From the IMG/VR virus record IMGVR_UViG_2636415673_000004, positions 1 to 48,566 of that record: DNA of 48,566 nucleotides; one strand, given 5' to 3'. This document shows, piece by piece, positions 551 to 48,566 of this stretch (the first letter of the stretch is position 1; each line of letters starts with the position of its first letter). This DNA comes from a virus (taxonomy: Duplodnaviria > Heunggongvirae > Uroviricota > Caudoviricetes). A program made the position numbers and the translations under genes. The notes under the pieces were generated by a model. It made no database searches. It was not told where the DNA came from and saw only the letters and a list, made by a program, of their open reading frames with translations.

Positions 551-1141
551 ATGTCTCGAATTTTTGCTTACTGTCGGATATCAACGCTGGATCAGACCAC
601 CGAAAATCAACGCCGGGAAATCGAAAGTGCAGGTTTTAACATCAAATCTCAGCAAATAATCGAAGAACACATTAGCGGCTCAGCAGCAACCAGTGAGCGT
701 CCTGGTTTTAACCGGTTGCTTGCTCGCCTGAAATGTGGTGATCAATTGATTGTGACAAAACTGGATCGCCTTGGTTGTAATGCAATGGATATCAGGAAAA
801 CAGTGGAACAACTGACCGAAACAGGTATCAGAGTGCATTGCTTAGCATTGGGGGGCATTGACCTGACCAGTCCAACAGGAAAAATGATGATGCAAGTAAT
901 TTCAGCAGTCGCTGAATTTGAACGAGACCTTTTACTTGAACGCACTCATTCCGGGATAGTAAGAGCCCGCGGCGCAGGGAAACGTTTTGGTCGACCACCT
1001 GTGTTAAATGAAGAACAGAAACAGGTGGTATTCGAACGAATTAAGTCAGGTGTAAGTATAAGTGCCATTGCCCGGGAATTCAAAACCTCGCGGCAAACCA
1101 TTTTAAGAGCCAAAGCAAAACTTCAGACACCTGACATATAA
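551..1141 (+). CDS. pinQ: Serine recombinase, Pin/Gin/Hin-family DNA invertase (196 aa)
   Basis: N-terminal catalytic motif [10 protein letters not shown] and C-terminal HTH; same length as PinQ/PinR; lies next to tail-fibre genes. Confidence 0.9.
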
Positions 1142-2756: not shown

Positions 2757-3026
2757 TTAAGCCCATGTCCTTACATGCTGATCTGTCGTAATGAAAGGCA
2801 TTAAAGAAGATATGTTTTTACTGCTATCAACAATCCTCATGTTTACGAAAAAACCACCGCGATCAATGCCTGTACATCTTTCGTTTTCTGGCTCCTCGTA
2901 ATCGATAATGCAGCCAATAACATCAACAAGAACCCCGTTTTCTTCTTCAAGACTGAACAGGCCACTGTCATATACAATTGCGTTAAACTGTTCTCTGTTA
3001 TCGAATCGTAATGTTATATCTCGCAT
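2757..3026 (-). CDS. Hypothetical protein (89 aa), translationally coupled to stf; possible fibre accessory/assembly factor
   Basis: ATG overlaps the stf stop as TAATG; no recognisable domain. Confidence 0.4.
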   Translation of the reverse strand: MRDITLRFDNREQFNAIVYDSGLFSLEEENGVLVDVIGCIIDYEEPENERCTGIDRGGFFVNMRIVDSSKNISSLMPFITTDQHVRTWA

Positions 3027-5383
3027 TATACGTATTCCTTAAGCTGCGTATCTGACAATGCTCTGTTCCAGAAACGGAGGTTTTTTATATGACCATTAAG
3101 GTGTCGTAATCCTGTCGTCGTTTGCCCCCCGATACGAATCACGGCTGCTTCACGAATATATTTCCATACTGTTTTTGTTTCAGCGCTTATATGCTTATTT
3201 GCAAATGAGCATGTCATGCCGTCAGCCTTAACCCTGAATCCCATAACGAGATCCCTTACTCCGCATGATTCATATACACGTCGGTTAGCCCCGCCTATAT
3301 CGCAATACGAATAACCGTCCTGACTGATAGTTCCAGAAGAACCAAACCCCATAATAAATGGGCCTCCGGACTGGTGATTTTCTGAATCAATGACACGCGG
3401 TGCAGCATTATGAGAAATAAACCAGTTTTTATGGACTTCCACCATGAACGTAAAAGGCATGGTATACATATTTTTCATCAGCGGAAATTTACATAAATCT
3501 GATGCACGAGTCGCTGGCTCTGTTGTCGTTATGATGAAGGAAGTTGCACAAGCACCATACTCGAATTGCGGGGTGGTTACTTCTATCCAGTCACCTGTTG
3601 CAAAAGCTCCCACAGCTCTGTCGGCTGCAATTTGCAGCTGCGTACCAACCATTCCCCATTCTGGCAGACATTTCAGTGTTGCCTGAAAATATATCCATCC
3701 ACTACCAGGGTCGATTTCAAAGTTTGCTGTTAATAGCTGGGCATTGCCACCAGTAATTTGTAGTTCATGGGTCTGTAATGACAAATAGGCGTCGCAAAGG
3801 AAGGTGTATCCTTCCGAGTTATACCGTTCAAAACGGATACGTGCGCGAACATTGAGATCACTTCTTACCCTGAACGACGCGGTAACATACGGACCTTTAC
3901 TGTACTGATCATCGCCAGTCACATCTATGCCTTTGTTACCAGCAACTGTGCATATATTTCTCCCTGTTGTCGTTCCTGCTATATCGCTTCCTACCGTGAA
4001 ACGTCCATATTTAAACTCAAATTCATCTGTTGATGATGTTACAGATATACCACCGCTTTTATTCCACGCATCAGGATTAAAACTATTTACGAACATGTTT
4101 GTTCGCTGATTCTCTATCAGCAAACCATATTTTTCAAAACGAGGAACGTTATTACCTGCCACGGTAATATGCCCGGACTTATCAATATACGTTGCAGATG
4201 AAGCCCGGCTAAATTGGCATATGCCATTAACTGGCACAGTGATTTCATCGCTGCCGATGGTTATTGTTTTATACCCCGGCGCATACCCTGTTATCGCTTC
4301 CAGAGAATCATTCAAGGGTAGCCAGATATCAGGAAGCGGAGGGACAGAAGCAGGATCAGCGGCATCTTCTGCAATCCGGGCTGCATTCTCTGCTCTTGTT
4401 GCGGCTGACGTTGCTTCTGTCTCGCTGGCTGCTGCTTTTGTTTCGCTCGCCTTTGCGTTAGTTTCACTGGTTTTTGCAGCTTTTTGGCTATTAGCTGCCG
4501 CTGTTGCAGAACCAGCTGCAGCACTCTCGCTTTCGGCTGCTGCATCCTGACTGCTTTTCGCCGCAGTTTCGCTGGCTTTGGCATTCGTTTCGCTGGTCTT
4601 CGCTGCCGTCTGGCTGGACTTTGCGTTAGTTTCACTCGTCTTCGCAGCTTTCTGGCTGTTAGCCGCAGCAGTTGCTGATCCAGCTGCTGAAGTCGCAGAA
4701 CCGGCTGCCGCGCTCTCGCTTTGGGCTGCTGCAACCTGGCTGTTTTTTGCCGCAGTTTCACTGGCTTTGGCATTCGTTTCGCTGGTCTTCGCTGCCGTCT
4801 GGCTGGACTTTGCGTTGGTTTCGCTCGTCTTTGCGGCTGTCTCGCTGTTTTTCGCGTTGGTTTCTGATTTTTTGGCTGCTGTCGCGGAGTTTGCCGATGC
4901 AGTCTGTGAGGTCGCTGCCGCCTGTGCGCTGTTAGCTGCATTCGTTTCTGAGGTTTTCGCCGCGTTCTTCGATGATGCCGCTGCAGTTTCGGATTTCTTT
5001 GCCGCCGCTGCGCTCTGAGAGGCGGCTTCGGCGTTGCGTGCCGCTTCTTCCACCATTTCCTCAAAACGGCGCAATGCCTCCGGCATGACATCATCTTCCG
5101 TCATGGCACCGAGAAAATCATTCAGCGTACCTGGTCTGGAACCTTCATAGACGGTAATGGTCCCGGCATGTGAAGGCGGAAAACCTTCAACCAGCAGGGT
5201 GACGCTGTACTGGCCATACTCAACATCCATGCTGTAACGCCCGGCTTCATCAGGATTTTCAGAGGCCACCGTGTTCACCAGTACCGTGGTGCTGTTACGC
5301 TTTGCCTTCAGTTGAATAGTGCAGTTCTGTATTGGTTTTCCCGCACCATCTTTCAGCACACCTGAGATTTTTACTGCTGCCAT
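3026..5383 (-). CDS. stf: Side tail fibre protein Stf (about 785 aa) with lambda-Stf-like N-terminus, Ala/Ser/Thr tandem repeats and LamG-like C-terminal domain
   Basis: N-terminus MAAVKISGVLKDG... resembles lambda Stf; repeated KTSETNAK units; C-terminus ends in a ...NLRFWNRALSDTQL motif. ATG at 5383 preferred over GTG at 5389. Confidence 0.8.
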   Translation of the reverse strand: MAAVKISGVLKDGAGKPIQNCTIQLKAKRNSTTVLVNTVASENPDEAGRYSMDVEYGQYSVTLLVEGFPPSHAGTITVYEGSRPGTLNDFLGAMTEDDVMPEALRRFEEMVEEAARNAEAASQSAAAAKKSETAAASSKNAAKTSETNAANSAQAAATSQTASANSATAAKKSETNAKNSETAAKTSETNAKSSQTAAKTSETNAKASETAAKNSQVAAAQSESAAAGSATSAAGSATAAANSQKAAKTSETNAKSSQTAAKTSETNAKASETAAKSSQDAAAESESAAAGSATAAANSQKAAKTSETNAKASETKAAASETEATSAATRAENAARIAEDAADPASVPPLPDIWLPLNDSLEAITGYAPGYKTITIGSDEITVPVNGICQFSRASSATYIDKSGHITVAGNNVPRFEKYGLLIENQRTNMFVNSFNPDAWNKSGGISVTSSTDEFEFKYGRFTVGSDIAGTTTGRNICTVAGNKGIDVTGDDQYSKGPYVTASFRVRSDLNVRARIRFERYNSEGYTFLCDAYLSLQTHELQITGGNAQLLTANFEIDPGSGWIYFQATLKCLPEWGMVGTQLQIAADRAVGAFATGDWIEVTTPQFEYGACATSFIITTTEPATRASDLCKFPLMKNMYTMPFTFMVEVHKNWFISHNAAPRVIDSENHQSGGPFIMGFGSSGTISQDGYSYCDIGGANRRVYESCGVRDLVMGFRVKADGMTCSFANKHISAETKTVWKYIREAAVIRIGGQTTTGLRHLNGHIKNLRFWNRALSDTQLKEYV
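4420..4935. repeat. In-frame tandem DNA repeats (about 189-bp period) inside stf
   Basis: The block ccgcagtttc(g/a)ctggctttggcattcgtttcgctggtcttcgctgccgtctggctggactttgcgtt occurs at about 4561 and 4750, with degenerate copies upstream. Confidence 0.7.
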
Positions 5384-5394
5384 ATCCACTCCAC

Positions 5395-17850: not shown

Positions 17851-18876
17851 TTACGCCAGTTGTACAGACACGAATTCATCAGGGTCAGCCAGCAGCATCA
17901 GCGGTGCTGACTGAATCATGGTGAACTCACGCGCCGGATCGCCGGTGGTCACCCAGTTTTTCGGGTAACGGGCAGAGGCGTTAATGCCTTCGCGCTGTGC
18001 GTCCGCATCCTGAATGCAACCATAGGTGCGCAGACCGCGTGCCTGAGTGTTCCCCAGCACCATCGTGTTGTCCGGCAGGAAGTTCTTTTTGACGCCGTTT
18101 TCCACGTACTGTCCGGAATACACGACGATGGCCACATCGCCATACATTCCCTTATAAGACACCGCTTTGCCCAGGTCTTTTACCGCTGTCTCCAGTTCGG
18201 AATGAGAGCCGCGACGGGTATCCAGCTTCTCCCTGACGGCTTTGAAGGAACGGAACAGCGCCCAGCCTTTCGGATCAAACACGATGATATTCACCACGCC
18301 GCTGGCGTTCAGCGCGTAGGCTTCGATATCGTCGGTCGGGTCATACGTGGACTTGTCACGCTTGCTCCACTCCGTACCACCGGACTGCGTGATGTTGTTG
18401 GCCGCACTGCGGCCCATATCCACCTCAACCGGATCGAAGGCTTCACCGGTCATGGTGTATTTGCCCTTAAGCACGGCAGAAACTGCCTGCATCTCTTCCA
18501 CCTGGGCAATGGCCAGCTCTTCGTCACGCATGTTCTGCATGATGATGCGACGGCGACGGTAAGCCGGGTCCGCCAGATTCTGCGGATCTTCATCCGGCAG
18601 GCGACGCAGGGTCATCTGCGGATTCACTTCATGCTTGGGTTTGACATATCCCGGCGTAAATTCAGAGGTGGAGCCGCCACGGGAGCGGATAACCTCACCG
18701 GAAACAATCGGCGAAACGTACAGCGCCATGTTTACCAGTCCCGGAATTTGTGAGAGATAGACTTTCTCCGTGGTGAAGGGATAGCTCTCACGGAAAAAGA
18801 GACGCAGAAACAGCGGATCAAACTTAAATTTCTGCTCATTTGCCGCCAGCAGCTGGGCGGTTGTGTACATCGACAT
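17851..18876 (-). CDS. E: Major capsid protein E (341 aa)
   Basis: Starts MSMYTTAQLLAANEQKFKFDPLFLRLFF...; matches lambda gpE as recalled. Confidence 0.95.
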   Translation of the reverse strand: MSMYTTAQLLAANEQKFKFDPLFLRLFFRESYPFTTEKVYLSQIPGLVNMALYVSPIVSGEVIRSRGGSTSEFTPGYVKPKHEVNPQMTLRRLPDEDPQNLADPAYRRRRIIMQNMRDEELAIAQVEEMQAVSAVLKGKYTMTGEAFDPVEVDMGRSAANNITQSGGTEWSKRDKSTYDPTDDIEAYALNASGVVNIIVFDPKGWALFRSFKAVREKLDTRRGSHSELETAVKDLGKAVSYKGMYGDVAIVVYSGQYVENGVKKNFLPDNTMVLGNTQARGLRTYGCIQDADAQREGINASARYPKNWVTTGDPAREFTMIQSAPLMLLADPDEFVSVQLA

Positions 18877-18931
18877 AAAAAAATCCCGTAAAAAAAGCCG
18901 CACAGGCGGCCTTTAGTGATGAAGGGTAAGG

Positions 18932-24820: not shown

Positions 24821-25060
24821 TGTTCATTCCCCGGACAAAAACAGAGAAAGGAAACGACAGAGGCCAAAAAGCCCGTTTTCAGCACCTGTCGTTTCCTTTC
24901 TTTTCAGGGGGTGTTTTAAATAAAAACATTAAGTTACGGCGAAGAAGAACGGAAACGCCTTAAACCGGAAAATTTTCATAAATAGCGAAAACCCGCGAGG
25001 TCGCCGCCCCGTAACCTGTCGGATCGCCGGAAAGGACCCACAAAATGATAATAATTATCA
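24821..25060. other. cos packaging site: cosB 24821..24997, cosN cohesive-end 12-mer 24998..25009, cosQ region about 25010..25060
   Basis: Plus-strand aggtcgccgccc (reverse complement of the lambda left cohesive end GGGCGGCGACCT) at 24998-25009, flanked by sequence resembling both lambda ends as recalled. Confidence 0.85.
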
Positions 25061-25208
25061 TCTACATATCACAACGTGCGTGTACGCCATCAAACCACGT
25101 CAAATAATCAATTATGACGCAGGTATCGTATTAATTGATCCGCATCAACTTAACGTAAAAACAACTTCAGACAATACAAATCAGCGACACAGAATACGGG
25201 ACAACCTC

Positions 25209-25400
25209 ATGTCAACGAAGAACAGAACCCGCAGAACAACAACCCGCAACATCCGCTTTCCTAACCAAATGATTGAACAAATTAACATCGCTCTTGATCA
25301 AAAAGGGTCCGGGAATTTCTCAGCCTGGGTCATTGAAGCCTGCCGTCGGAGACTAACGTCAGAAAAGAGAGCATCTACATCAATCAAAAGTGATGAATAA
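25209..25400 (+). CDS. Small ribbon-helix-helix-type DNA-binding protein (63 aa); start uncertain (ORF-track frame begins with GTG at 25080)
   Basis: MSTKNRTRRTTTRNIRFPNQMIEQINIALDQKGSGNFSAWVIEACRRRL has the beta-strand plus two-helix pattern of RHH (Arc/CopG-like) proteins. Confidence 0.45.
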   Translation: MSTKNRTRRTTTRNIRFPNQMIEQINIALDQKGSGNFSAWVIEACRRRLTSEKRASTSIKSDE

Positions 25401-25653
25401 TGAATATCCCGGTTTCTTTACCTCCCCTCCCACCCCGCACAGGACTGGCGAACGTGTGGGACAAATATGTGAGTCATAAACGCCTTATCTTCAGAAATGC
25501 AGTTGGCATCCGAACAGGACGATATTGTAACTTCACCTAATTACGAGGCATTGCAGTAGTTGAATTGTAGTTCTGTATTAGCCTGACAGTGACAGAATGC
25601 GATATTGACTCTGTCACAGGTGAAATAGTTTGAATGGTTAGCAGTTATGGCGA

Positions 25654-25860
25654 TCAGTCAACCACCAGGGAATAATCCTTCGAATTCTTATCGTGCTTCA
25701 CCAACGCTGCCTCAATTGCCCTGAATGCTTCCAGAGACACTTGATGTTCTATACATGCAATTACAACATCCGGATAACTCATAGAAATGGTGCTAGTGAG
25801 CATAGTTTTTACACGGACCTGATCCAAGGATGAGTCATCAGTGTATTGATCTTTATGCAT
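25654..25860 (-). CDS. Hypothetical protein (68 aa)
   Basis: ATG with GGAG 7 nt upstream; no recognised domain. Confidence 0.4.
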
Positions 25861-26155
25861 TTTGTCGCTCCATGCGTTTGCTCTTCACTTGCGGCTAAAA
25901 ATATAACGTCAAATCACTCAGCATGAAAGTGTGAAAGTTTCAGCGCGTTTCCCTTACATAATCTGTCGTTTGTATTCTCTCCAGGCATACCGGAAAGACT
26001 AGGTATTGTCACACAACCAATACCACCGACTATCGAGATTTATATCTATTCGGTAATGTTTAAATATAACAAAACCCCGTAAAAACGAGGTTTATGGGTA
26101 AATTGTATTGTTGAATAGCATCTGATAAGAAATTGATGCTAATACTATAAACACA

Positions 26156-26329
26156 CTAGATTAAATCAATCTTGATATCATAGCTTTCAAGACCAGTCAT
26201 TTTTTCCCGTGCAGTAAACTGGATACTGGTAACTTCTTTCCCGGTCTTTTTCTTAAGCTCAATAATTTTTTTTGTTATATATTCAGAAATATCTGCTTCT
26301 GTTTTTGTTTTTAACTCTTCAATGTTCAT
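26156..26329 (-). CDS. gnsB: GnsA/GnsB-family protein (57 aa)
   Basis: MNIEELKTKTEADISEYITKKIIELKKKTGKEVTSIQFTAREKMTGLESYDIKIDLI resembles E. coli GnsB as recalled. Confidence 0.7.
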   Translation of the reverse strand: MNIEELKTKTEADISEYITKKIIELKKKTGKEVTSIQFTAREKMTGLESYDIKIDLI

Positions 26330-26501
26330 CATTTCCTCTTTTAGTCTGTTATGACTTTCCTGGTACACAGTAGTGTCAATTATATGGAGCAAACGTATAA
26401 AAGATAAGATGAAACATCGCAATAATCAACATACGACAGTCTAAATTTCGCACAAACAGATAAAGATGATTATCCTTTATTATCAAGGCATTAGAATGAA
26501 A

Positions 26502-26732
26502 TCAATTCAAGAGTCTCATTGCTGCTTCCAGAATTTCTTCTGAAGTTACATGTCGATCCGCTGCTACATAAATGACTTTATGATCTCCGGTCAGAGATGG
26601 AAACCCTGCAGCCATTACAGTGAGATGTGTTGTTTCGCCATTTGGATATTCACGCATGATGGTGTTAACTCCGGTCATCACTGGCACTACCATTGCTGGT
26701 TCAGAGTTAAAAAAAACTATTATTTTTTTCAT
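26502..26732 (-). CDS. Hypothetical protein (about 76 aa); start uncertain
   Basis: ORF-track frame; internal ATG at 26732 (MKKIIVFFNSEPAM...) preferred over the distal GTG. Confidence 0.35.
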   Translation of the reverse strand: MKKIIVFFNSEPAMVVPVMTGVNTIMREYPNGETTHLTVMAAGFPSLTGDHKVIYVAADRHVTSEEILEAAMRLLN

Positions 26733-26774
26733 GATGTTACCGTAATATGTGAGTATCCATCGACTAGACACTAA

Positions 26775-26800
26775 GCAAAAAAGCTCCCGAAGGAGCCTTC
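26775..26800 (-). terminator. Rho-independent terminator (minus strand)
   Basis: Minus-strand GGCTCC-TTCG-GGAGC followed by TTTTTT. Confidence 0.5.
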
Positions 26801-27003
26801 ATTTTCACTTTCTTAAATCTAACGACAGACGGCTAACATTTAAGTATTGTGAAATATTATCAAATGTAATCATCATTGATTTACAAAAGATACATTTTGC
26901 CCCGAAAGGATTCCTGTCAGAAACATCAAAAGATGATGTTCTATACTGAGAACCATGGCAACACGGGCATCTAAAGTGAATATGGTTTGTAATATTTTCT
27001 ACC

Positions 27004-27216
27004 TCAAAGTGCCACTACATGAACAGCCGCGGGGCCTTTAGGTCCGTTCTCAATACCAAATTCGACTTGCTGATTCTCAGTTAACGTTTTGAAATCGTTG
27101 CTCTGAATAGCTGAGAAATGGACAAACACATCTTTGCTACCATCTTTCGGCGTGATGAAACCAAAACCTTTTTCAGGGTTAAACCATTTCACTAAACCAG
27201 TCATTTTGTTAGACAT
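27004..27216 (-). CDS. cspI: Cold-shock protein CspI (70 aa)
   Basis: [45 protein letters not shown]... is a cold-shock domain with RNP motifs. Confidence 0.85.
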
Positions 27217-27584
27217 CATTATTACCTTTTGAAGAAGTTAGCCCTTGGGCAGAATGGTCCGAAAAAAATATCAGAGAGAAAAACCAACAAGGAAATCTCA
27301 AGAGGTACAAATAATAAAATTATAACAATGACTGCTTCAGATAATTTTGTAACAAACCAGAACACCATTAACGCATGATTAACCAACCATAGCAAGGATT
27401 ACTTTTGTAAAGAAAAACACACGAATGAAACAATAGCTTTATTTATTAATAAAACGTATCATTCTGTCTAATGACCTTTTATCTTACCCTTAAGATTTCA
27501 AGGATTTTGACTCATGGAAGAGTCCTTTTTATTTAAATTTCACATTCAGCGCTAAAAATAATCCGATTTAATGTTAATCTACAT

Positions 27585-28606
<1,022 letters not shown>

Positions 28607-28711
28607 GGATATTTATCAGGATTTATCGGTTTCTGAACCCTGGATATGTTTATCTGTCCCGGCCTGTTGAATCAGGCGGGGAAAAGGTAAAGACAATCAA
28701 GAGGATTATTT

Positions 28712-28984
28712 ATGGACAATAACACCATTTCTCTACAGGAGTTGCTCGACTGCATTTCAAAGCTTCGGGATGATGTAAATGCCCTCACTGTTGCATTTTC
28801 ATATTTGGCCTTATCAATTCCCAGAGAACAAATGCAACCAACACTGGCATCGCTCCTGCTTGAATCACGCAACCCCAAATGGTCCCAGGAACAACAAAAT
28901 TCTTTCAAGTGGCTGGCGGCATTACTGGAAGAAAAATATGCTGGTAAAATTACCATTTCGGTGGAGTCTTCAGAGAATCAGTAA
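28712..28984 (+). CDS. Hypothetical protein (90 aa) encoded antisense inside the lysis cassette
   Basis: Strong RBS (AAGAGGA, 6 nt, ATG) and non-repetitive sequence MDNNTISLQELLDCISKLRDDVNALTVAF...; its 3' end overlaps the convergent 28950..29294 gene by 35 nt. Confidence 0.45.
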   Translation: MDNNTISLQELLDCISKLRDDVNALTVAFSYLALSIPREQMQPTLASLLLESRNPKWSQEQQNSFKWLAALLEEKYAGKITISVESSENQ

Positions 28985-29294
28985 TTCTTCCTGGTAGCTT
29001 TCCTTTGTAAGTTATCCACACATTCTGCGCCTCTAAAATTACGGGGCGCTTTTCCGGCGACTGCTCATCCCCTTCACATAACCCGGCTGCAACTTCCAGG
29101 AAGACCTGTCTGATGCTCCTTCTGGCTGCTGCCTCATAAAACTCCAGCGCGGCACCTTCAACACGGTCCAGCGAGATGTCCAGGTCAAAAATTTCACCGT
29201 CAAAGCGTTTTTTGTCCCTTAATGCTACAGTTACCGCAACTTTATTCTCAAAATTGCGGATCCCTTTCACAATCAGTTCATAGTTTTGTGTCAT
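28950..29294 (-). CDS. Hypothetical protein between holin and endolysin (about 114 aa; possibly YdfR-like)
   Basis: ATG at 29294 with GGGGAGAG upstream, 4 nt after the holin stop; MTQNYELIVKGIRNFENKVAVT.... Confidence 0.5.
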   Translation of the reverse strand: MTQNYELIVKGIRNFENKVAVTVALRDKKRFDGEIFDLDISLDRVEGAALEFYEAAARRSIRQVFLEVAAGLCEGDEQSPEKRPVILEAQNVWITYKGKLPGRITDSLKTPPKW

Positions 29295-29298
29295 TGAA

Positions 29299-29514
29299 TT
29301 ACTCTCCCCGTGCAACCTTACGCTTGTCTTCTTTAATCTTGAAATAAAGGTTTGTCAGGTACGTCAGCAAGCCAAATACCAGACTACCCAGCACACCGAT
29401 TGCAGCCCACTGTGACGGAGTTACTTTATCGAGTAACTGCAATGCCCAGAAACCAGCATTACCAGCCGATGTGCCATAGGCGATACCTGTTGTTAACTTA
29501 TCCATTGATTTCAT
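29299..29514 (-). CDS. essQ: Phage-21-type pinholin S (dual-start, 71/68 aa)
   Basis: [28 protein letters not shown]... with two in-frame starts (M1 and M4) and two TMDs; paired with a SAR endolysin. Confidence 0.85.
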
Positions 29515-29732
29515 ATCCTCACCCCGATGTACACAGATGGTGCAATATGTTTGAAAAGATCGGAGTCTATGGGGTAGTTTTTATAGCAAACGTTGTTCTC
29601 AACGGCGCTAAAAAACAGACACATTAAAAATGTGGGTAATTATTTTAAAAGAAAATCATATATTAAATAATAATACGAGATATGTTTTCATATTTAGTGT
29701 ACTGTATACGGCCATTTATACAGGAAAAGCCT

Positions 29733-29903
29733 ATGTCAGAACGTAAAGACTCAAAATCACGCCGTAATTATCTCGTTAAATGTTCCTGCCCAAACTGCAC
29801 CCAAGAGTCAGAACACAGTTTTTCAAGAATACAAAAAGGTGCCCTTTTGATCTGCCCTCATTGCAACAAAGTATTCCAGACAAATCTTAAAGCTGTAGCT
29901 TGA
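29733..29903 (+). CDS. ynfU: Small zinc-ribbon protein (56 aa), YnfU-like
   Basis: MSERKDSKSRRNYLVKCSCPNCTQESEHSFSRIQKGALLICPHCNKVF has a CxxC...CxxC ribbon; ATG at 29733. Confidence 0.5.
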   Translation: MSERKDSKSRRNYLVKCSCPNCTQESEHSFSRIQKGALLICPHCNKVFQTNLKAVA

Positions 29904-30266
29904 TTGATTTTATTCGTAACAAGTATTTTTTATATTTTAATAACATATTTAAAGCAGATAATAAAAAACCCGCCTGAGCGGGTTTAATATTGTGGTACTT
30001 TTTGTGGGAGTCATCCACTTACGCACTTTGTTTTGCTATGCCAGCAGTTAGCTTCTGCTGTAAAACTATTCATGCAGCAAACCTGCACTTCACCACAATG
30101 GTTAGCATACTTTTCCTGATTAAGTTATTGCCAAATATGCTGGCCATTGTTTCATGTATTGGACCTCCTTACTATTTATTAAAGAGATCCAATATTCACC
30201 ACTCTGTCTGTATCTCCACTCAGGCATCAGCCTTCTTCGTTATCGTATACAGACAAACTATGAATT

Positions 30267-30482
30267 TTAATCAGTAATTATGACATTTGCTGCTGCAGGA
30301 CCTTTAGCACCACTCTCTACAGAGAAGGTAACCTTTTGACCTTCAAATAAGGTTCGATAATTATCATTCTGAATCGCAGAAAAATGCACAAACACATCTT
30401 TACTACCATCAACAGGAGAAATAAAGCCAAAACCTTTATCAGCGTTAAACCATTTTACTAAACCAGTCATTTTATTTGACAT
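30267..30482 (-). CDS. cspB: Cold-shock protein CspB (71 aa)
   Basis: [45 protein letters not shown].... Confidence 0.85.
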
Positions 30483-30782
30483 TCTACATTCCTTAACTTG
30501 AGCCTTTCGGCATAAATGGCTTGTATAACAGAAACGACTTCGTACTTAATTGGAGAGACTCAAAGAAGGAATAAGTGAATAACACCTGAAATGAGAACTG
30601 CTTTAGTAAACTACTTCGTATATCGTCTGTTCTTCAAACCGACGCAATCATTAACGCATAGTTGAACATATGAAGCAATGTTTATTTTAGACATCCAGCC
30701 ATCTTCAACCCCATCAAAAAACTATAGCTTTCTTCAGGAACGTGTGTATAGTGCGCCAAGTTATCAGTATTAAGGAATTTTT

Positions 30783-30995
30783 TTGTCCCGTAAAATGACA
30801 GGAATTCTCAAAACCTTTGACGGCAAAAGCGGCAAAGGTCTTATAACCCCATCCGATGGTCGTATCGATGTCTAGCTTCATGTTTCAGCGCTCAATCTCC
30901 GCGATGCAGAAGAAATTACCACCGGATTACGCGTGGAATTTTGCCGGATAAATGGTCTGCGTGGACCATCAGCTGCCAATGTTTACCTTTCATGA
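30783..30995 (+). pseudogene. cspF: cspF-like cold-shock gene disrupted by an in-frame amber codon; TTG at the expected start
   Basis: Frame reads (L)[32 protein letters not shown](30873-30875)[42 protein letters not shown]. Confidence 0.6.
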
Positions 30996-31274
30996 GCTAT
31001 ATTAAAGCTTTAACTTCAAGCCCCATCGAATCAAACATGGAGAGTTTTCATGAATAAACCCGTCTGTCTTGATGACTGGTTGATTGGCTTTAAAAGCTTA
31101 TGCTGTACTTTGACCTTAATAGCTCTGCTAATAATGTAATAAGCAGACTCATTGTATCTATGGACATTGTACTGGAAGAAAACATTTTAAACATCAGGCA
31201 AAAAACAAAGTCACCCGATAAATAATAAGTAAACTAACATGAATCCCGTAATGAGATTCAACATCTCTATTACC

Positions 31275-31312
31275 CTATTTAAAGCACAAAAACCCGCTCA
31301 TCAGCGGGTTTT
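31275..31312. terminator. Hairpin plus flanking A/T runs; candidate tR' for the late transcript and/or cspF terminator
   Basis: aaaaACCCGCT-catc-AGCGGGTtttctacttttt: GC stem with U-runs on both strands. Confidence 0.5.
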
Positions 31313-31347
31313 CTACTTTTTCTTAACTTCGGGTATACAAAGCCCAT

Positions 31348-31376
31348 CGTTGAAAAAATTTTATCCATATTTTTTG
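31348..31376 (-). promoter_or_regulatory. Candidate late promoter pR' just downstream of Q
   Basis: Minus-strand TTGCAT, 17-nt spacer, TAAAAT; about 45 bp below the Q stop. Confidence 0.4.
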
Positions 31377-31417
31377 AAAAATGCAAGCATCACGTCGCCA
31401 TCTTCGGCGAAAATCAC

Positions 31418-38197: not shown

Positions 38198-38824
38198 ATG
38201 GAAACGGTTGGTCAGCGTATAAAAGCTCTGAGAAGGGTTACCAGAACGTCCCAGAAAGAATTGGGTAAATTTTGTGGGGTAAGTGACGTTGCTGTGGGGT
38301 ACTGGGAAAAAGACATCAATGTCCCTGGCGGGGAAGCACTTTCGAAATTAGCGAAGTTCTTTAATACGTCAATAGATTACATTCTTTATGGTGCTGAGTT
38401 TGAAGGCAAACTAGTCACAAACATGCGCAGAGTTCCTGTAATTTCGTGGGTTCAGGCTGGGCAGTTTACTGAGTGCAGGGCAGCAGAAGTGTTTAGTGAA
38501 GTGGACAAGTGGGTAGATACATCTTTAAAGATTGGTGATAACTCATTTGCATTAGAAGTTAAAGGCGACTCCATGACTAATCCTAATGGCCTCCCAACAA
38601 TACCAGAAGGTGCAACAGTGATTGTAGATCCTGATGCAGAACCTCGTCATGGAAAAATAGTCATTGCTCGACTTGATGGAACGAACGAAGCTACAGTAAA
38701 AAAATTAGTCATCGATGGTCCTCAAAAGTTTTTAGTGCCATTAAATCCACGGTATCCCAACATCCCAATCAATGGTAATTGCCTGATCATTGGTGTAGTC
38801 AAAGGAGTTCAATACGAACTCTAG
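38198..38824 (+). CDS. cI: CI-type prophage repressor (HTH-XRE plus S24 LexA-like autopeptidase), 208 aa
   Basis: N-terminal HTH (QKELGKFCGVSDVAVGYWEKD); C-terminal S24 motifs GDSM (Ser) and a downstream Lys (ATVKKL). Confidence 0.85.
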   Translation: METVGQRIKALRRVTRTSQKELGKFCGVSDVAVGYWEKDINVPGGEALSKLAKFFNTSIDYILYGAEFEGKLVTNMRRVPVISWVQAGQFTECRAAEVFSEVDKWVDTSLKIGDNSFALEVKGDSMTNPNGLPTIPEGATVIVDPDAEPRHGKIVIARLDGTNEATVKKLVIDGPQKFLVPLNPRYPNIPINGNCLIIGVVKGVQYEL

Positions 38825-39054: not shown

Positions 39055-39576
39055 TTAAGGAATCCAAGGCGAATTCAGATCTCGCCCCGACTCACGTAAT
39101 GATCTTGGTCGTTCGTACATCGGATTTTTTTCCATAAGAAATTTATTTTCACAGTGAAGGCAACGGCTTGTAAGAAAATGAGAAGTTTTACCTACTGGAA
39201 GCGGATGAAGTATCGATTTTATATTTTTGGAATAACAAAGTGGGCACAGATGCACAGTTATTTCTTTTCCACTCACAATTTCATTTTTAGAGTAAACAAA
39301 AGCACCAGAGTCAAGCTGATCAAGGACATATCCTTCTACCTTGGCACAAAAATCTTCAAACTCTGCAATTTTTGCTTTGAGATGCATCACCTCTTCATCA
39401 CGAAGGCGGATCGCATCGCCAAGAGAGAAGCATTCTGCCTGAAGCGTGATTAGTTTGTTCTGGAGTTCAATGGTTGCAGCTTTAACTTCTGCATCCGTTT
39501 TCGCGTCATTAATAACCTTAGCAAGACCGGCAGTCTCCTTTATAGCAGCCATAGCCGCAGACAGTTCAGCTATCAC
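39055..39576 (-). CDS. Hypothetical protein (173 aa; coiled-coil N-terminus, CxxC...CxxC C-terminus), antisense to cI and the early-left operon
   Basis: Non-repetitive ORF with its own terminator; CPLCYSK...CLHCENKF motif; start codon GTG (39576) or ATG (39552), both with weak RBS. Confidence 0.45.
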   Translation of the reverse strand: MIAELSAAMAAIKETAGLAKVINDAKTDAEVKAATIELQNKLITLQAECFSLGDAIRLRDEEVMHLKAKIAEFEDFCAKVEGYVLDQLDSGAFVYSKNEIVSGKEITVHLCPLCYSKNIKSILHPLPVGKTSHFLTSRCLHCENKFLMEKNPMYERPRSLRESGRDLNSPWIP

Positions 39577-42316: not shown

Positions 42317-42936
42317 TGACCACATTTACCAATAAAGAACTGATTAAAGAAATCAAAGAACGAATCAGCAGCCTAGAGGTTCGAGACGATATTGAGCGCC
42401 GTGCTTATGAAATTGCTCTGGCATCGCTGGAAGAGGAGCCGGTGGCATGGCTGCATTCAGACAATGGCTTAGGTATTCCGGCAATAACCAGGAGCAAAAA
42501 CATTGCTGACAGTTGGTTATCAATGGGCTGGTATGTTCAGCCGCTATATATAGCCAAGCCAGTACTGGTGGTGCCAGATGCTCGTCCGTCTTTAAATAAT
42601 GGCATAGTCGGTTTTGATGAAGGCTGGAACGCCTGCCGCGCCACCATGCTTCATGGTGCCAAACCTGTAAGCCAGACTTACAAGTTGAACAAGCTGTCGG
42701 GCAACTCTCCGGTAACTCAGGATGGTTGGATAAGCTGTAGTGAGCGAATGCCGAACGATAAACAGTATGTTTGGTGTTGGGGTAAGTCTTACGGCTGGAC
42801 TGAGTGCGATACCTTCGAAGGGTATTACGATTGGTCGAGAAACAAATGGTGGGCAGTTACAGACGATGGGGAAGAACCGGCATCGAAAGTAACCCACTGG
42901 ATGCCGCTACCGGAGCCACCGCAGGAGGTGAAGTAA
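42316..42936 (+). CDS. DUF551-domain protein (206 aa)
   Basis: C-terminal GWISCSERMPNDKQYVWCWGK...VTHWMPLPEPP; TAATG coupling to the upstream gene. Confidence 0.55.
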   Translation: MTTFTNKELIKEIKERISSLEVRDDIERRAYEIALASLEEEPVAWLHSDNGLGIPAITRSKNIADSWLSMGWYVQPLYIAKPVLVVPDARPSLNNGIVGFDEGWNACRATMLHGAKPVSQTYKLNKLSGNSPVTQDGWISCSERMPNDKQYVWCWGKSYGWTECDTFEGYYDWSRNKWWAVTDDGEEPASKVTHWMPLPEPPQEVK

Positions 42937-43130
42937 TGAACAACTTAATGACAACTAAACAAGTCGCCGACTTCTGTGGTGTTTCAGTATCGACCGTTCT
43001 TCGCTGGAACAGCGTAAACAGGAGAACTGGCCAGAAATACAGGCCTGACTTTCCAGATCCTGATATTAAATCCTGCCCAAATAAATGGGCATCACGCAAG
43101 ATATACAGGTTTGCTGGAGTTATTGAGTGA
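42936..43130 (+). CDS. xis: Excisionase/AlpA-like small HTH protein (64 aa)
   Basis: MNNLMTTKQVADFCGVSVSTVLRWNS... HTH; last gene of the early-left operon; TAATG coupling. Confidence 0.6.
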   Translation: MNNLMTTKQVADFCGVSVSTVLRWNSVNRRTGQKYRPDFPDPDIKSCPNKWASRKIYRFAGVIE

Positions 43131-43332
43131 TGGGTATTAGCTCATATCAGAACTAATACCCATCAATGACACAGAGCCAACTACCCACCCTGTGTCAGGG
43201 GCTAACTTTTAACACCATAATTCACCGCTAGATAAAAACTGTATTGCATTGCACGAGCGGCGCAGCATTATCAGTTAGAGTGTCTTTACCTTGTTAGGCT
43301 CCACAGTTCGCACTGTCCAACGCCTGTCACTT

Positions 43333-46300
43333 TCACACGCTGCGCCTTCGAGAATATTCATTTAATCGCTGATAACGAACATCTTGCTCCAGTTGTGGAG
43401 CAGCTTGAACAATTTGAAGCAAGCATTGCCCCAACTCTCGAGGCCCCCAGTGTTGTTCGGCAATCACGGCATTCAGCAGGGATAGAGCGTCCGCAGGATA
43501 TCGGCTGCAAATATCTGATTCTAGCAAAAGGCGAACGTCGTAGCTAAGGTGTTCGAGCGGTTGCAGCCAGTCCTGCACCACTGCCAAAGCCGCCGGAAAT
43601 TCACCTCGGGCAGCAATCACCATACGAGTCAACGATTCGGATATGCGTGGGGTGGCCAAGTTGCGGGACTTTGGCCAAACCTGTTGCCAAAATGGCTGGA
43701 CACGATTTTTCCAATACTCCTCGCGCTGATCGCCCGCACCTTCAAGTGCCTGGTATAACGCCTGCGCGGCTACCTCCAGACCTTCTTGTGGAAGAGCACT
43801 AATTGCCGTTCGGAACTCCTCCACGGTATATCCCTCGGTAGGGCCCAGAGCTGCATAAGTCAGGAAAGTAGCGAATTGCTGCCGGTGCTCGCCAAGATCA
43901 GAATAGTGATTGGCGCTCTCCAAAAAATCTGACTTGAAAGCTATCAGCAACGGTTCATACAGGCGTGGCGACCAGAGGAAGCCTTCCCACACAGCTTTTG
44001 CTTCGACGGGATTACTCCAAGCAAACAAGGGCAATAGATACTGTTCGGTCCAAGGTCGATCTACGCGAAAAAATGCGATCAGCCGCGACCCCAGCAACAC
44101 CCGACCATGGCGGAATAGCTCTATCTGTACATTACACAATTTGGTGAAAAGTGTTTTCAATTCAACAGGAAGCAAATCATTGTCATTCGGGTTCTGTTTG
44201 AACCATAGGGTGATCAGTGATTGCGTGACATGCCCAATGGGATGATTGATCGCCGTAGAAACAGGATCATAGGTCTCAATTCCGTTTCGAATGGTGCTAG
44301 ACTCTGGGCTTGTTTCTATCATCAGAACCCGACGACAAAGGGCCAGTAGAATCTCCTCGTGGCAGAGGATGGTCTTCGAAGCCTCCTCCATCCACCAAGT
44401 GACAGCGTGGGAAATCTCCTGAAGTACTGCGTCAGGCATGTCAAGCACCAACGGTGCGGCGTACCGCCACGAACGCAAAATCATCCCTGGTTCAGCCCAA
44501 GTCTGCAGAGCTTCACGCCACCGACCAACAGGCCACACATCATCTTGTGATAGTTTACTTAACGCATACAGACTGTGAAAAAAGCGCGTACGGCAAACAT
44601 CACTCCAAGTGTCCTCATAGAAAGGCAGTCTTTCTGGCATAGGCTTTGCGAGCCATTGCACTAATTCCTGCCACTTACGGGGCGCAATGTCGACATCTAT
44701 ATTCTCCTCGAAGCCTGGATCACCGGTTCCGCTCATCCAGTGAGAGAATTCATCACGCTCGTTGGTTGCCAGTTGCCATTTTGGGTATGCTGTGGATATT
44801 TCCGTCAAACGTGTAGCCGCAGACTCTCCCAAAACAAGGCCCGCTCCCCTGAGCTTCGCTAGACACAACCAGACGGAATGAGCCACCAAATAATGCCACC
44901 TGTCTGCTTCCAAATTATCCTCGTACATCTCGCGCGGAGGCCCTGCCAAGATAGCAGTTTCCAGACGCTCTTGTGCAATTCCTGTCAGATGTCGTCCCTG
45001 CAAAACAAACAGTCTGAATACCTCTCGCCCAGTATCCGTGGCCCACAACCACCATGAACCGTCCTCTAACAACCAATTAACCCACCGCTCAGGTGGTATG
45101 CAGTTGTCTTGGCTTGCGGCAAACAGTGCCAGACGTTTGAAGGTGGGATATGGCAACTCAAACCAATTCTGAGCAATGCGCGTGGCCTGATCGCTGTCTT
45201 TGGCTCGAACGGCTAACCATGAATCCCGAAGTAATTCAATCAGGCTCACCCAATCGCGGAACCCCCGGTTCTGCCAGTGCGGAGTGATGGACGGCAAATC
45301 CCAATGCGAGCGGTCGTGACGATCGTCGGACTCTCCCAACTCCCGCAACAAGTCCAGTGCATCACGCAACAACTGCTGAAAATCTTCCAACAGGTATGGC
45401 AAGGACGATTTCCATGACTCGTCAGCAAGGTCGAACAGGGTTGAACGTACGTAATCAGCAGTCAGCACCAGCTCCCAATCCACCAATTGCTTGATTCGCA
45501 AGGGTTCATCAGTGCTGCTCGAATCGTCTTCACTATAGCGAAACGGCCGCCTCAACATAACCTTGGGAGAAAGCAACTCGCGTAACTCCAAGCGCAATGT
45601 AGTCGTCAAGCCTTCATTCTTTAAGCGGTTTTGCCAACGATACAAATCCAGGTTCTGCAATGGCGATTTCACACGACCACTAAGCAGAAGCCGCCATAAA
45701 GTAGACATAGGTGGACCAGGAATAGCCAGGGGGGAATGCAAGAGAATTTCATCTAACTCAAAAGTCTTACGCTCCCGCATCAGTGCTGCTAAGCGATCTA
45801 GTTCGCTCTCAATCAGAAACATCCAACGGTCGTGTATTTGTCCGCCGCGTTCAGCAATCCATATGATCAACCTAGGGTCGCCCAGATAACGAACTAGCCA
45901 ACGGGCTATATGGGACATTACGTCATCCCATTTGCTAGCACTGACACATCCAGAAACCAGCGACATCTGCAGGGCCAGCTCATAGGGCGCAGGACGCTGA
46001 ACCAGACTGAATCGGAGTTTCGGGTCAATTTCGACATGCGGAGATACACAAAAGCGTGGCAGATCGCTGTATTTAAATCGTTCGTCCGAGAAAGCTTTCA
46101 ATAACCAATCCAGCGGCGGTGCAGGATTGAGTTCCGCAAAGCGTTTTGCTGGTAAACCTGATTTATCTGACAAGGCCCACAACATCCGACCAACGAAATC
46201 GTCCTGACGAGTGCTGTCCTGCGGGCGGGCCAGAGCATGTTTGACGACTATAGCCTCTTTGCCCTGTATACCATCTCGATAAGTATCTGCCCAAGCGTGC

Positions 46301-47160
46301 AACGTTTGATGCAGCACTGAATGATCAGTGGAGCCCGCCGGTACGGTGTAAAGGATAGGAGTGACCCCTTTGGCCTCCCACTCGATGGCTTTCCGGTGCT
46401 CCTGCCCCGGCTCACACTCCCCCAGTGCCCATACTTGTGGTGTGACTTCACCGAGCCTCCGATCTGCTGCAAGCGCATCCATCATGTAGCGCAGTACCGG
46501 GTCGTTGATGCTGTAGCCAACGAAGCAGACCACATAGTTACGAAATAACTCACTCACAAAGCGAGCTGCCCAACGCTCAGTGAGATAAGCCAAGCCAAAG
46601 TCACCGCTGGTAACAACCAGACGATTCAGGGCAGTATCATCCGCCTTTTCCGGTAACAGCCCATGCAGGTATACAAGTCCATCCCAGCGGCTGTTTTTTG
46701 GAATTGGCAGCATCGGCGCTACATAGGCCTGAAAAGCCTGGCCTGTACGTTTAGCTGCCACATGAAAGAGACGGTCAAAGTTGGTAGTGACCAATCGAAG
46801 GGCACCCTCGCGGCTACGGGCTAAACGTAACAGCGCCGCCTGAGTATCAATAGCGCCCCTACGACGGAGCTTTGGCTTAAGGGCTTTTTCCAACGCGCGT
46901 CGGACGGCTATACGCTGCCCTGGTAAGCGCCGTTCCAGCAAATCTAATGTGCCGTCAAATTGCCCACGCTCGAAAACCTCACGCTCAATTTCTGAAAGTG
47001 TTGTTCCGTTCCTCTGGTAAATTAGTTCTACCAACCCTTTGAAACCAGGTAAACCAGCAGGGTAGGAAATGCCTGCTCCACAGAAGAACACAACGCGCCC
47101 TTCCTCGTGCGCCTGCAAAAGCTCATCAGGAATATCAGGGCCGTTGGTAATGAATTGCAT
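43333..47160 (-). CDS. Large SIR2-domain protein (1275 aa): N-terminal sirtuin-like NADase domain (about aa 20-290) plus about 1000-aa helical C-terminal region of unknown function; candidate antiphage defence protein
   Basis: Sirtuin motifs GAGIS-x-P-x-GLPGF (aa 28-40), TTNFD (N127) and YLHG (H166); strong RBS (AGGAGG, 7 nt, ATG); cargo position between xis and int. Confidence 0.8.
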   Translation of the reverse strand: MQFITNGPDIPDELLQAHEEGRVVFFCGAGISYPAGLPGFKGLVELIYQRNGTTLSEIEREVFERGQFDGTLDLLERRLPGQRIAVRRALEKALKPKLRRRGAIDTQAALLRLARSREGALRLVTTNFDRLFHVAAKRTGQAFQAYVAPMLPIPKNSRWDGLVYLHGLLPEKADDTALNRLVVTSGDFGLAYLTERWAARFVSELFRNYVVCFVGYSINDPVLRYMMDALAADRRLGEVTPQVWALGECEPGQEHRKAIEWEAKGVTPILYTVPAGSTDHSVLHQTLHAWADTYRDGIQGKEAIVVKHALARPQDSTRQDDFVGRMLWALSDKSGLPAKRFAELNPAPPLDWLLKAFSDERFKYSDLPRFCVSPHVEIDPKLRFSLVQRPAPYELALQMSLVSGCVSASKWDDVMSHIARWLVRYLGDPRLIIWIAERGGQIHDRWMFLIESELDRLAALMRERKTFELDEILLHSPLAIPGPPMSTLWRLLLSGRVKSPLQNLDLYRWQNRLKNEGLTTTLRLELRELLSPKVMLRRPFRYSEDDSSSTDEPLRIKQLVDWELVLTADYVRSTLFDLADESWKSSLPYLLEDFQQLLRDALDLLRELGESDDRHDRSHWDLPSITPHWQNRGFRDWVSLIELLRDSWLAVRAKDSDQATRIAQNWFELPYPTFKRLALFAASQDNCIPPERWVNWLLEDGSWWLWATDTGREVFRLFVLQGRHLTGIAQERLETAILAGPPREMYEDNLEADRWHYLVAHSVWLCLAKLRGAGLVLGESAATRLTEISTAYPKWQLATNERDEFSHWMSGTGDPGFEENIDVDIAPRKWQELVQWLAKPMPERLPFYEDTWSDVCRTRFFHSLYALSKLSQDDVWPVGRWREALQTWAEPGMILRSWRYAAPLVLDMPDAVLQEISHAVTWWMEEASKTILCHEEILLALCRRVLMIETSPESSTIRNGIETYDPVSTAINHPIGHVTQSLITLWFKQNPNDNDLLPVELKTLFTKLCNVQIELFRHGRVLLGSRLIAFFRVDRPWTEQYLLPLFAWSNPVEAKAVWEGFLWSPRLYEPLLIAFKSDFLESANHYSDLGEHRQQFATFLTYAALGPTEGYTVEEFRTAISALPQEGLEVAAQALYQALEGAGDQREEYWKNRVQPFWQQVWPKSRNLATPRISESLTRMVIAARGEFPAALAVVQDWLQPLEHLSYDVRLLLESDICSRYPADALSLLNAVIAEQHWGPRELGQCLLQIVQAAPQLEQDVRYQRLNEYSRRRSV

Positions 47161-47342
47161 TCCTTTTCCTCCTATCCAATGTGCACGTTCATTCGAGTAA
47201 ATGAAGGCAAGGGGTTACATCTTATTATACCGACCGTGCAAATCCGGCTTCCTAGCAAGCTACTTTACTTGCCAACTCATAATGTCCGAACTCCGAACAA
47301 AGCGGACTGCTAGATTTGATTGCGTTCTAGCTACGCAAAATA

Positions 47343-48566
47343 TCATTTCGAGCCTGAACGAGTACAAGTAACAATCGATTCAACTCTCTCCCACCATGCC
47401 TGGTAGGCTTTACGCTGTTCTTCTAGATAATCACTCTTGTCATAAACTTGCCATACACCTGGCAGTTTATGACCGAGCATTATTTCAGCAATATGAGGCG
47501 CAGTAAGATCAGAAAAGTTTGTTCGTGCTGTTCGTCTCAAATCATGAAGAGACCAATGAGGAAATTGATACCCCAAACGCCGCCATGCGTACTGCATTAA
47601 ATTGTAAGGTAGCGACTGCAATGATGTCCGACCAACTGGTTCCCTGCTTCCTTCCTTAGTAAAAAGCATATCGGAACCGTTGTTCATAGAGATAACGTAT
47701 TTTATAAGCTCTTCAACCGGTTCAATAATGGGCCGCTTTAGCGGTTCGCCTGTTATATCCCCTGTCTTATGTCGTTCTGGTGGTACAGTCCATATTTTAT
47801 TAATGAAATCAAAATCGTCCACCTTGGCAGTAATTAGCTCTGAACTACGGCAACCAAAATGCAGCAATAGTTTAATGAAGGCCCGGTATTTAGGAACCAT
47901 TCGAGAACCATCGATCGCAGCATAAAGGATTTTAATTTCATCATGTGTCAGAAACCGTTTCTTCTGACCTTTACGGATATCCATATCTTTACCCGTGATA
48001 TCCGACAGCGGGCGAGTTTCAATGAGCTTTCTCTTATACGCCCAGACATGGGCCTGCTTTGCGTTAATTAGCAATCGGTCTGCTATTGCTGGAGTCTTAG
48101 TGCTAAGAGGCTCCAGGACTTCTAACCAATCATGCAATGTAGCTGCATCGTGAGGGATATTCCCGATTTTAGAGAACAGGTGCAGCTCAAACGAGCGGAG
48201 TATCTGTTCAGAACCTTTTTTATTTTTTACACAATATGCTTCATACCAAGCACGGATCACAGATTCTACCGTCATGGCTTCAGTAGCTTTACGTTTTTCT
48301 GCCAGCTTGACCAATCGTGGATTGCGGTTTGACTCGAGTTCACCACGAAGACGGATAACTTCTTCTCTGGCCTCTTTTAGTCCAGTTGCCGGGTAAGTTC
48401 CGATATCAAGACGCTCACCTTTCCCCGCCCACTGATAACGATATTGGAACACTACGCGACCTTTCGGTGATACTCTAACAGACAGACCATCACGATCGGA
48501 TTTAACCAAAACCTTATCACGTTCCTTTCCAACAACTGAACGCAACCACGCATCAGACAGCGCCAT
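47343..48566 (-). CDS. int: Tyrosine-type phage integrase (407 aa); ATG at the window edge
   Basis: N-terminus MALSDAWLRSVVGKERDKVL...GLSVRVSPKGRVVFQYRY typical of P4-like integrases; C-terminal catalytic region with HDLRRT and HxxG-Y motifs. Confidence 0.85.
   Translation of the reverse strand: MALSDAWLRSVVGKERDKVLVKSDRDGLSVRVSPKGRVVFQYRYQWAGKGERLDIGTYPATGLKEAREEVIRLRGELESNRNPRLVKLAEKRKATEAMTVESVIRAWYEAYCVKNKKGSEQILRSFELHLFSKIGNIPHDAATLHDWLEVLEPLSTKTPAIADRLLINAKQAHVWAYKRKLIETRPLSDITGKDMDIRKGQKKRFLTHDEIKILYAAIDGSRMVPKYRAFIKLLLHFGCRSSELITAKVDDFDFINKIWTVPPERHKTGDITGEPLKRPIIEPVEELIKYVISMNNGSDMLFTKEGSREPVGRTSLQSLPYNLMQYAWRRLGYQFPHWSLHDLRRTARTNFSDLTAPHIAEIMLGHKLPGVWQVYDKSDYLEEQRKAYQAWWERVESIVTCTRSGSK

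Follow-up and report, generated by a model that had tools for sequence, protein, structure and literature searches.

The 1275-residue SIR2 protein encoded between xis and int of a lambda-like prophage is very probably Dsr1, a one-gene anti-phage NAD+ hydrolase carried as exchangeable cargo

The name DSR1 reportedly dates from 2020, when Gao et al. (Science 369:1077) gave it to a defence gene. The Escherichia coli protein EcDsr1 (WP_029488749.1) protects against a few Drexlerviridae (PMC12803255). Among 73 phage genes, the one encoding the major capsid protein of ZL19 was the unique EcDsr1 activator (PMC12803255 and its April 2026 version). Co-expression of EcDsr1 and the ZL19 capsid protein leads to E. 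coli cell death that depends on the NADase domain, and disruption of that domain abolishes toxicity (PMC12803255). In Bacillus subtilis, DSR1 depletes NAD+ upon phi29 infection, only transiently and without collapse of the culture (bioRxiv 10.1101/2021.12.14.472415). A phage NAD+-salvage system, NARP3, counteracts EcDSR1 (PMC13464706). Here we describe the viral record IMGVR_UViG_2636415673_000004, whose full stretch of 48,566 nucleotides is called the window below, and in particular a gene for a 1275-residue SIR2 protein that lies between the excisionase and integrase genes. We consider it very probable that this gene is dsr1, encoding a one-gene anti-phage NAD+ hydrolase with a solenoid sensor and carried as moron-type prophage cargo. 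Our analysis concerns its family membership, its catalytic pair, the selection acting on it, the fold class of its sensor, and the structure of its cassette and hotspot; for defence, NAD+ depletion and the capsid trigger, we draw on the literature.

The gene is defined as follows.

43333..47160, minus strand: dsr1 coding sequence, 1275 amino acid residues plus stop; a single uninterrupted open reading frame (ORF) with an ATG start and full-length matches to Dsr1 models.

The reading frame contains no internal stops, and its start codon is supported by an N-terminus, MQFIT..., that is kept across homologues. A Shine–Dalgarno sequence, AGGAGG, lies 7 nt ahead of the ATG (47173->47168). A stand-alone ORF of 1275 residues with a strong ribosome-binding site, as originally predicted from the DNA alone, is thus what the window contains. 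The prediction had further proposed a candidate single-protein defence-associated sirtuin and had asked whether it was a known DSR variant or a new family, suggesting defence-system annotation as a check. PADLOC returns Dsr1 over the full 1275 residues: profile PDLC02183 is matched at E=0 and 2729 bits from position 1 to 1275 of its 1275 positions, and PDLC04167 at 1.1e-193. The NCBIfam equivalog model NF041818, “anti-phage defense-associated sirtuin Dsr1”, is matched with 2054.9 bits against a cut-off of 1400 bits, residues 1–1271 aligning with profile positions 1–1263. RefSeq lists, under WP_039720274.1, a gene of E. coli 2021CK-01784 that is 100% identical and bears the annotation dsr1. The exact protein sequence occurs under the name Dsr1 on 178 NCBI contigs, and its 90%-identity cluster has 418 members. 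In PHROGs, the protein falls in phrog_15208, which is listed as “unknown function”. Since an identical protein already bears the name Dsr1 and the curated models are passed from end to end, the window gene is, judged by its sequence, a member of the known family Dsr1 and not of a new one, which answers the question that the prediction had posed.

The N-terminal part of the protein is the putative effector.

46291..47160, minus strand: SIR2-type NADase effector domain, residues 1–290, with a SIR2_2 match, the Rossmann motif GAGIS at 28–32, N127/D129 and H166, and no zinc module.

The sole Pfam domain in the protein is SIR2_2 (PF13289, residues 123–269, E=8.9e-23). The sirtuin motifs are GAGIS (28–32), GLPGF (36–40), TTNFD (125–129, containing N127 and D129) and LHG (165–167, containing H166), each at the position given in the original prediction. 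Among proteins of solved structure, the nearest in sequence are two defence NADases, KomC (8zsf) and ThsA (6lhx), and not deacetylases. KomC aligns over residues 12–245, placing H166 opposite KomC H146, the residue replaced in the H146N mutant structure 9xvc. In the alignment of ThsA with a 61-sequence profile, N127 corresponds to N112 and H166 to H152. Five residues, G28, G30, N127, D129 and H166, do not vary among 61 homologues with 37–56% identity, and the catalytic residues are likewise invariant in a second alignment. The claim that N127 and H166 are the residue pair used by defence SIR2 NADases is borne out by this register. The PADLOC ThsA models match residues 13–230 only, the SIR2 part (E=3e-5); they stop there, and no Thoeris-type C-terminal SLOG/STALD signal-binding domain was found in the protein.

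The remainder of the protein, about 1000 residues, had been described as helical and rich in Trp and Leu.

43336..46290, minus strand: C-terminal sensor region, residues 291–1275; an ARM/HEAT-like helical-repeat α-solenoid with many invariant Trp residues.

The composition of the C-terminal 975 residues (Leu 14.3%, Trp 4.4%) agrees with that description, and the AlphaFold2 (AF2) model of residues 281–1275 is a confident, ARM/HEAT-like α-solenoid with a predicted local distance difference test score (pLDDT) of 88.4. A fold search with this model found no close solved relative and no match to P-loop folds. When the sensor was used as the only query, the best 120 matches were all Dsr1 proteins, with 75–99% identity over 99–100% of the query. 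The sensor family comprises 2781 representatives at 50% clustering (E <= 1e-3), and sensor identity is 75–82% among Enterobacterales, Vibrio and Betaproteobacteria. Two kinds of search, word-index and exhaustive representative, list the best 120–150 matches; among these, all the sensor relatives are SIR2 fusions, eight relatives with short N-termini are truncated SIR2_2 proteins, and no sensor is joined to a non-SIR2 effector. The Avs7 and Dsr1 sensors have been claimed to be homologous on the basis of PSI-BLAST (PMC12803255). With the sensor as query, no solved Avs7 chain was retrieved by sequence or by fold. A C-terminal sensor that detects a phage structural protein and sets off NAD+ depletion, as had been proposed, agrees with what has been reported for Dsr1.

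The gene is under purifying selection, since the ratio of nonsynonymous to synonymous substitution rates (dN/dS) is 0.10–0.17 in comparisons with two 94% E. coli alleles and with the genes of Rahnella and Vibrio cholerae. By part, the ratio for the SIR2 domain (0.04–0.08) is below that for the sensor (0.12–0.24). The dsr1 gene is carried by 76 of the 5426 complete E. coli genomes, in 72 of them as a near full-length copy with a nucleotide identity of 93.8–100%. The sole deposited phage record with dsr1 is that of the Stx2c-converting phage Stx2c_JNE082796 (LC727881.1:2049-5876), where the gene is 99.8% identical and its region has no annotated feature.

The window corresponds to a lambda-like prophage that is complete: it encodes a terminase, a portal and a major head protein, a tape measure and a J-like tail tip, and, as regulators, a Q-like antiterminator and a cI-like repressor. 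The last base of the window (48566) is the first base of the integrase ATG, so that the attachment site and the yjjG junction lie outside. The context was therefore taken from identical RefSeq genomes, in which the prophage is inserted beside yjjG with int at its edge. The cargo and the genes on its two sides are the following.

~43181..47297, strand not assigned: exchangeable cargo cassette of about 4.1 kb, dsr1 with its own flanks, delimited by blastn against sister prophages with other cargo.
47343..48566, minus strand: tyrosine integrase at the yjjG-side prophage edge, with Pfam Arm-DNA-bind_3, Phage_int_M and Phage_integrase domains; phrog_1.
42936..43130, plus strand: xis, a 64-residue excisionase; phrog_1553 (E=7.7e-36, residues 1–64 on positions 1–63 of 65) and a weak HTH_17 match.

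The int gene is directly upstream of dsr1 and is read in the same direction. The early-left operon, yfdP-yfdQ-yfdR-yfdS-DUF551-xis, is on the plus strand and ends with xis, which has a GGAGG 8 nt upstream of its ATG. The placement of the SIR2 gene between xis and int, convergent with the early-left operon, had been proposed from the DNA; the excisionase and integrase assignments and the opposite strands of operon and dsr1 confirm it. In both of the RefSeq records examined (L001 and L002), the Prokaryotic Genome Annotation Pipeline (PGAP) left the xis gene unannotated, and its homologue in locus L005 is annotated merely as “helix-turn-helix domain-containing protein”.

By blastn, homology to the sister prophages stops at 43169–43180 and restarts at 47298–47314. 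These break points define the cassette of about 4.1 kb, in which dsr1 is the only gene and is accompanied by its own flanks. Five sister prophages with the same integrase, also at yjjG, lack dsr1, and in each the slot is filled by another single gene. One of these is a dGTPase defence gene (L005:5392-6618(+); PADLOC dGTPase, 8e-105). The other four are “hypothetical proteins” of 239–413 residues (L003:5639-6634(+), L004:5564-6805(-), L006:5849-6886(+) and L007:5978-6697(-)); they differ from one another, and none has a Pfam, PADLOC or NCBIfam match. By their position, these four could be candidate undescribed defence genes. All the divergent E. coli copies of dsr1 sit in the same slot. Thus, dsr1 is swappable moron-type cargo beside the integrase. 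The integrase itself is present at >=95% identity, that is, at least that value, in 700 of the 5426 E. coli genomes.

The cassette borders contain two further features.

47161..47297, minus strand: 5′ flank travelling with dsr1, with the Shine–Dalgarno sequence (47173->47168), TATAAT (47229->47224) and a conserved leader; putative promoter and 5′ untranslated region.
43128..43165, strand not assigned: hairpin at the conserved left cassette border, with 16-nt arms and a 6-nt loop; it starts at the stop codon of xis.

The TATAAT at 47229->47224 is a perfect match that stands alone, with no usable -35 element. The 85–130 nt upstream of the dsr1 ATG, comprising TATAAT, leader and Shine–Dalgarno sequence, are kept in Rahnella and V. 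cholerae amid unrelated surroundings (loci compared: L012:5860-6003 and L013:5860-6003); this conservation is not seen in Thauera. Because these 85–130 nt are conserved where all around them differs, the most likely conclusion is that dsr1 brings its promoter and leader with it. From the layout and the conserved 5′ flank, we infer expression in the lysogen.

At the other border, the hairpin has a ΔG of -20.8 kcal/mol on the plus strand and -25.6 kcal/mol on the minus strand (z -4.6 and -5.7), and none of 200 shuffles was as good. It has no U-tract, and a small terminator-like site comes next, at 43188–43210. The two together separate the convergent transcription units; the hairpin itself may serve these units as a terminator or as a processing site, or else be a recombination border. 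For a hairpin past the stop codon of int, z is -0.99, which is not significant. One may imagine that the conserved leader, the hairpin at the xis stop and convergent pL-type transcription form a switch by which Dsr1 would be on in the lysogen and silenced at induction. Such a switch, if real, would spare the phage’s own capsid assembly from sensing by Dsr1. Taken jointly with the idea about the four slot genes, we hold this to be quite improbable.

Outside E. coli, dsr1 also occurs without companions, on unrelated mobile elements. The Rahnella copy lies on an integrase island, and that of Thauera on an integrative and conjugative element (ICE), adjoining TrbL and a relaxase. In V. cholerae, dsr1 is cargo of a Tn7-like element (L013/L014:1-13524) with a TnsA-like protein, an rve transposase and TniB; this element adjoins Csy3/Csy4 and a VspR regulator, and it looks like a CRISPR-associated transposon. 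From the E. coli prophage to Rahnella, V. cholerae and Thauera, dsr1 has entirely different neighbours. It follows that dsr1 is a stand-alone system with no conserved partner gene.

The following course of events is proposed. The SIR2 NAD+ hydrolase would be held inactive until the solenoid sensor of about 1000 residues binds a late-made phage protein. As reported for E. coli Dsr1, T1-like Drexlerviridae would supply this trigger in the form of their major capsid protein. The activated enzyme would then deplete NAD+ and block phage propagation, via abortive infection or growth arrest. With what is likely its own promoter and leader, dsr1 would protect the lysogen from superinfecting phages. 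When the major head protein of the prophage itself (17851–18903) is compared with the T1 capsid protein, no sequence similarity is seen (E=2.4), a result that, as far as sequences can tell, is compatible with the absence of self-triggering and is not proof of it.

Other readings of the protein have to be considered. It might be a classical NAD+-dependent deacylase fused to a scaffold, modifying host or phage proteins instead of destroying NAD+. A profile search of the PDB does reach SIRT2, SIRT3 and Hst2 at E ~1e-3, but these matches cover the Rossmann N-terminus only (profile positions 13–64), and the NCBIfam deacylase models NF001752 and NF001753, which surface at E=0.17, score 11 bits against cut-offs of 221–243. 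The window protein has no match to PF02146, the classical sirtuin family of Pfam. A Cys4 zinc-binding module is absent as well, since there are three Cys within residues 1–320 and no CxxC in the whole protein. The original prediction would have been given up on deacetylase matches with an intact zinc module; because no such module is present and the best relatives of solved structure are the defence NADases KomC and ThsA, it stands, and a deacylase is extremely unlikely. A DSR2-like mode of action, in which the tail tube protein is what the C-terminal domain senses and a DSAD1-like inhibitor can block it, fits the layout of an N-terminal SIR2 domain and a large helical C-terminal domain, the likeness from which the prediction had drawn its analogy. 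The layout part of that analogy holds; its trigger needs refinement, the reported trigger of E. coli Dsr1 being the major capsid protein and not the tail tube (PMC12803255). DSR2-type middle and C-terminal domains, which form the tail-tube sensor, were not found in the window protein by sequence or by fold, and we regard DSR2-like sensing as very unlikely.

Two more alternatives accept the family assignment and dispute what the gene does in the cell. The gene may be cargo that is silent or in decay and at present serves no function in the prophage, and decay does occur: a truncated dsr1 remnant lies in one degraded prophage (locus L008) and a 58% fragment in another genome (H90). A consensus scan also found no sigma-70 promoter in the int–dsr1 spacer, the counts of the promoter and terminator scan being no higher than in shuffles. 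However, the ORF of 1275 codons is intact behind a strong Shine–Dalgarno sequence, dN/dS is 0.10–0.17 with invariant catalytic residues, 72 of the 76 E. coli copies are full length and the 5′ flank is kept across mobile elements, so that cargo of this kind has only a slight chance of being the correct description. More weight belongs to the possibility that a transient, non-lethal dip in NAD+ stalls phage replication while the cell survives, which would not be abortive infection. In B. subtilis, phi29 was blocked by the DSR1 homologue under test, the culture did not collapse and NAD+ recovered (bioRxiv 10.1101/2021.12.14.472415). On the other side, EcDsr1 with the ZL19 capsid killed E. coli in a manner dependent on the NADase domain (PMC12803255), and the outcome may vary with the phage and the dose. 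This outcome is possible but, in our judgement, unlikely for the window gene.

The reading that we prefer, a functional Dsr1 NAD+ hydrolase triggered through its solenoid, has points that weigh against it in its turn. The experiments concern EcDsr1 WP_029488749.1 and not the exact allele of the window, and the capsid-trigger result stems from a preprint. The homology reported for the Avs7 sensor was not reproduced here, all the sensor relatives among the matches listed carrying SIR2. The lack of a sigma-70 consensus in the int–dsr1 spacer counts here as well. Finally, because the B. subtilis DSR1 test gave a transient NAD+ loss and no culture collapse, the outcome may differ from classical abortive infection.

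In E. coli, the dsr1 alleles are mosaic and form two classes, distinguished mainly by the 5′ third of the gene, which encodes the SIR2 part. In a comparison with the “94%” allele (L010), identity is only 73–90% over the promoter region and the first ~330 codons, the SIR2 part, with a synonymous divergence (dS) of ~0.6, whereas the sensor-coding remainder is 95–99% identical, with dS ~0.10 (window 46170–47370 compared). This pattern points to a probable intragenic recombination near the SIR2/sensor junction. One genome (H91), in which only the 5′ 570 nt of dsr1 are matched, was considered as a possible sensor-swapped SIR2 protein and rejected; it holds a truncated pseudogene in a decayed prophage.

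Elsewhere in the prophage, several accessory regions were seen. At the opposite end from the integrase, a Pin/Gin-like serine invertase gene (551–1141, plus strand; Resolvase and HTH_7) is near the tail-fibre genes at 1704–2744 and 3026–5389, both on the minus strand, an arrangement that suggests an invertible host-range segment. A second moron-like position is occupied by an ORF of 173 residues (39055–39576, minus strand; phrog_1244, with no Pfam or PADLOC match), placed between the cI-like repressor gene (38198–38824) and the early-left operon, on the opposite strand. The stretch 25000–31400, from terminase to the Q-like antiterminator, has a low GC content (34–43%) and small accessory ORFs, which include a GnsA/GnsB-family gene (26156–26422) and a DUF3950 gene (25080–25400); no tRNA genes were found in this stretch. 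A PADLOC scan of 10 accessory ORFs of the window for further defence genes gave only a weak, partial PDC-S22 match, to a KilA-N protein.

About Dsr1 as such, nothing new is added here: the family has been named since 2020, curated hidden Markov models exist for it, and PGAP annotates it automatically. The most useful side results are the exact limits of the cassette, the mosaic alleles in E. coli and the unannotated occupants of the slot. The slot is a variable cargo site, and it is the slot, not dsr1, where novelty should be sought.

Compared with the described systems, the window protein is nearest to EcDsr1 (WP_029488749.1), which is of the same family and from the same species; the window protein also has the same 1275-residue length as the PADLOC Dsr1 profile. 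Because the 72 full-length E. coli copies are 93.8–100% identical in nucleotide sequence, the window protein should be nearly identical to the tested EcDsr1, the two probably differing at the allele level only. ThsA and KomC have the closest solved SIR2 domains, with the catalytic Asn and His in register with those of Dsr1. However, ThsA is activated by a small-molecule signal via its SLOG domain, whereas Dsr1 has no SLOG domain and has a protein-sensing solenoid of its own, and KomC works inside a multi-protein system, which Dsr1 does not. Avs7, of the STAND NTPase family, is reported to have a bilobed helical-repeat sensor that is homologous to that of Dsr1 and binds the major capsid protein of tailed phages (PMC12803255); in place of the STAND NTPase of Avs7, Dsr1, with SIR2_2 as its only Pfam domain, has a SIR2 effector. 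Like Dsr1, DSR2 of B. subtilis (PDB 8k98 and 8wkt, among others) is a single protein with an N-terminal SIR2 NADase containing the N/H pair and a large α-helical C-terminal sensor, and it depletes NAD+ on sensing a phage structural protein. The sequence likeness between the two is limited to SIR2 positions 18–144 (E=2e-3); their sensors are unrelated by sequence, and DSR2 is absent from the fold-search matches. The tail tube is the reported trigger of DSR2; that of Dsr1 is the major capsid protein.

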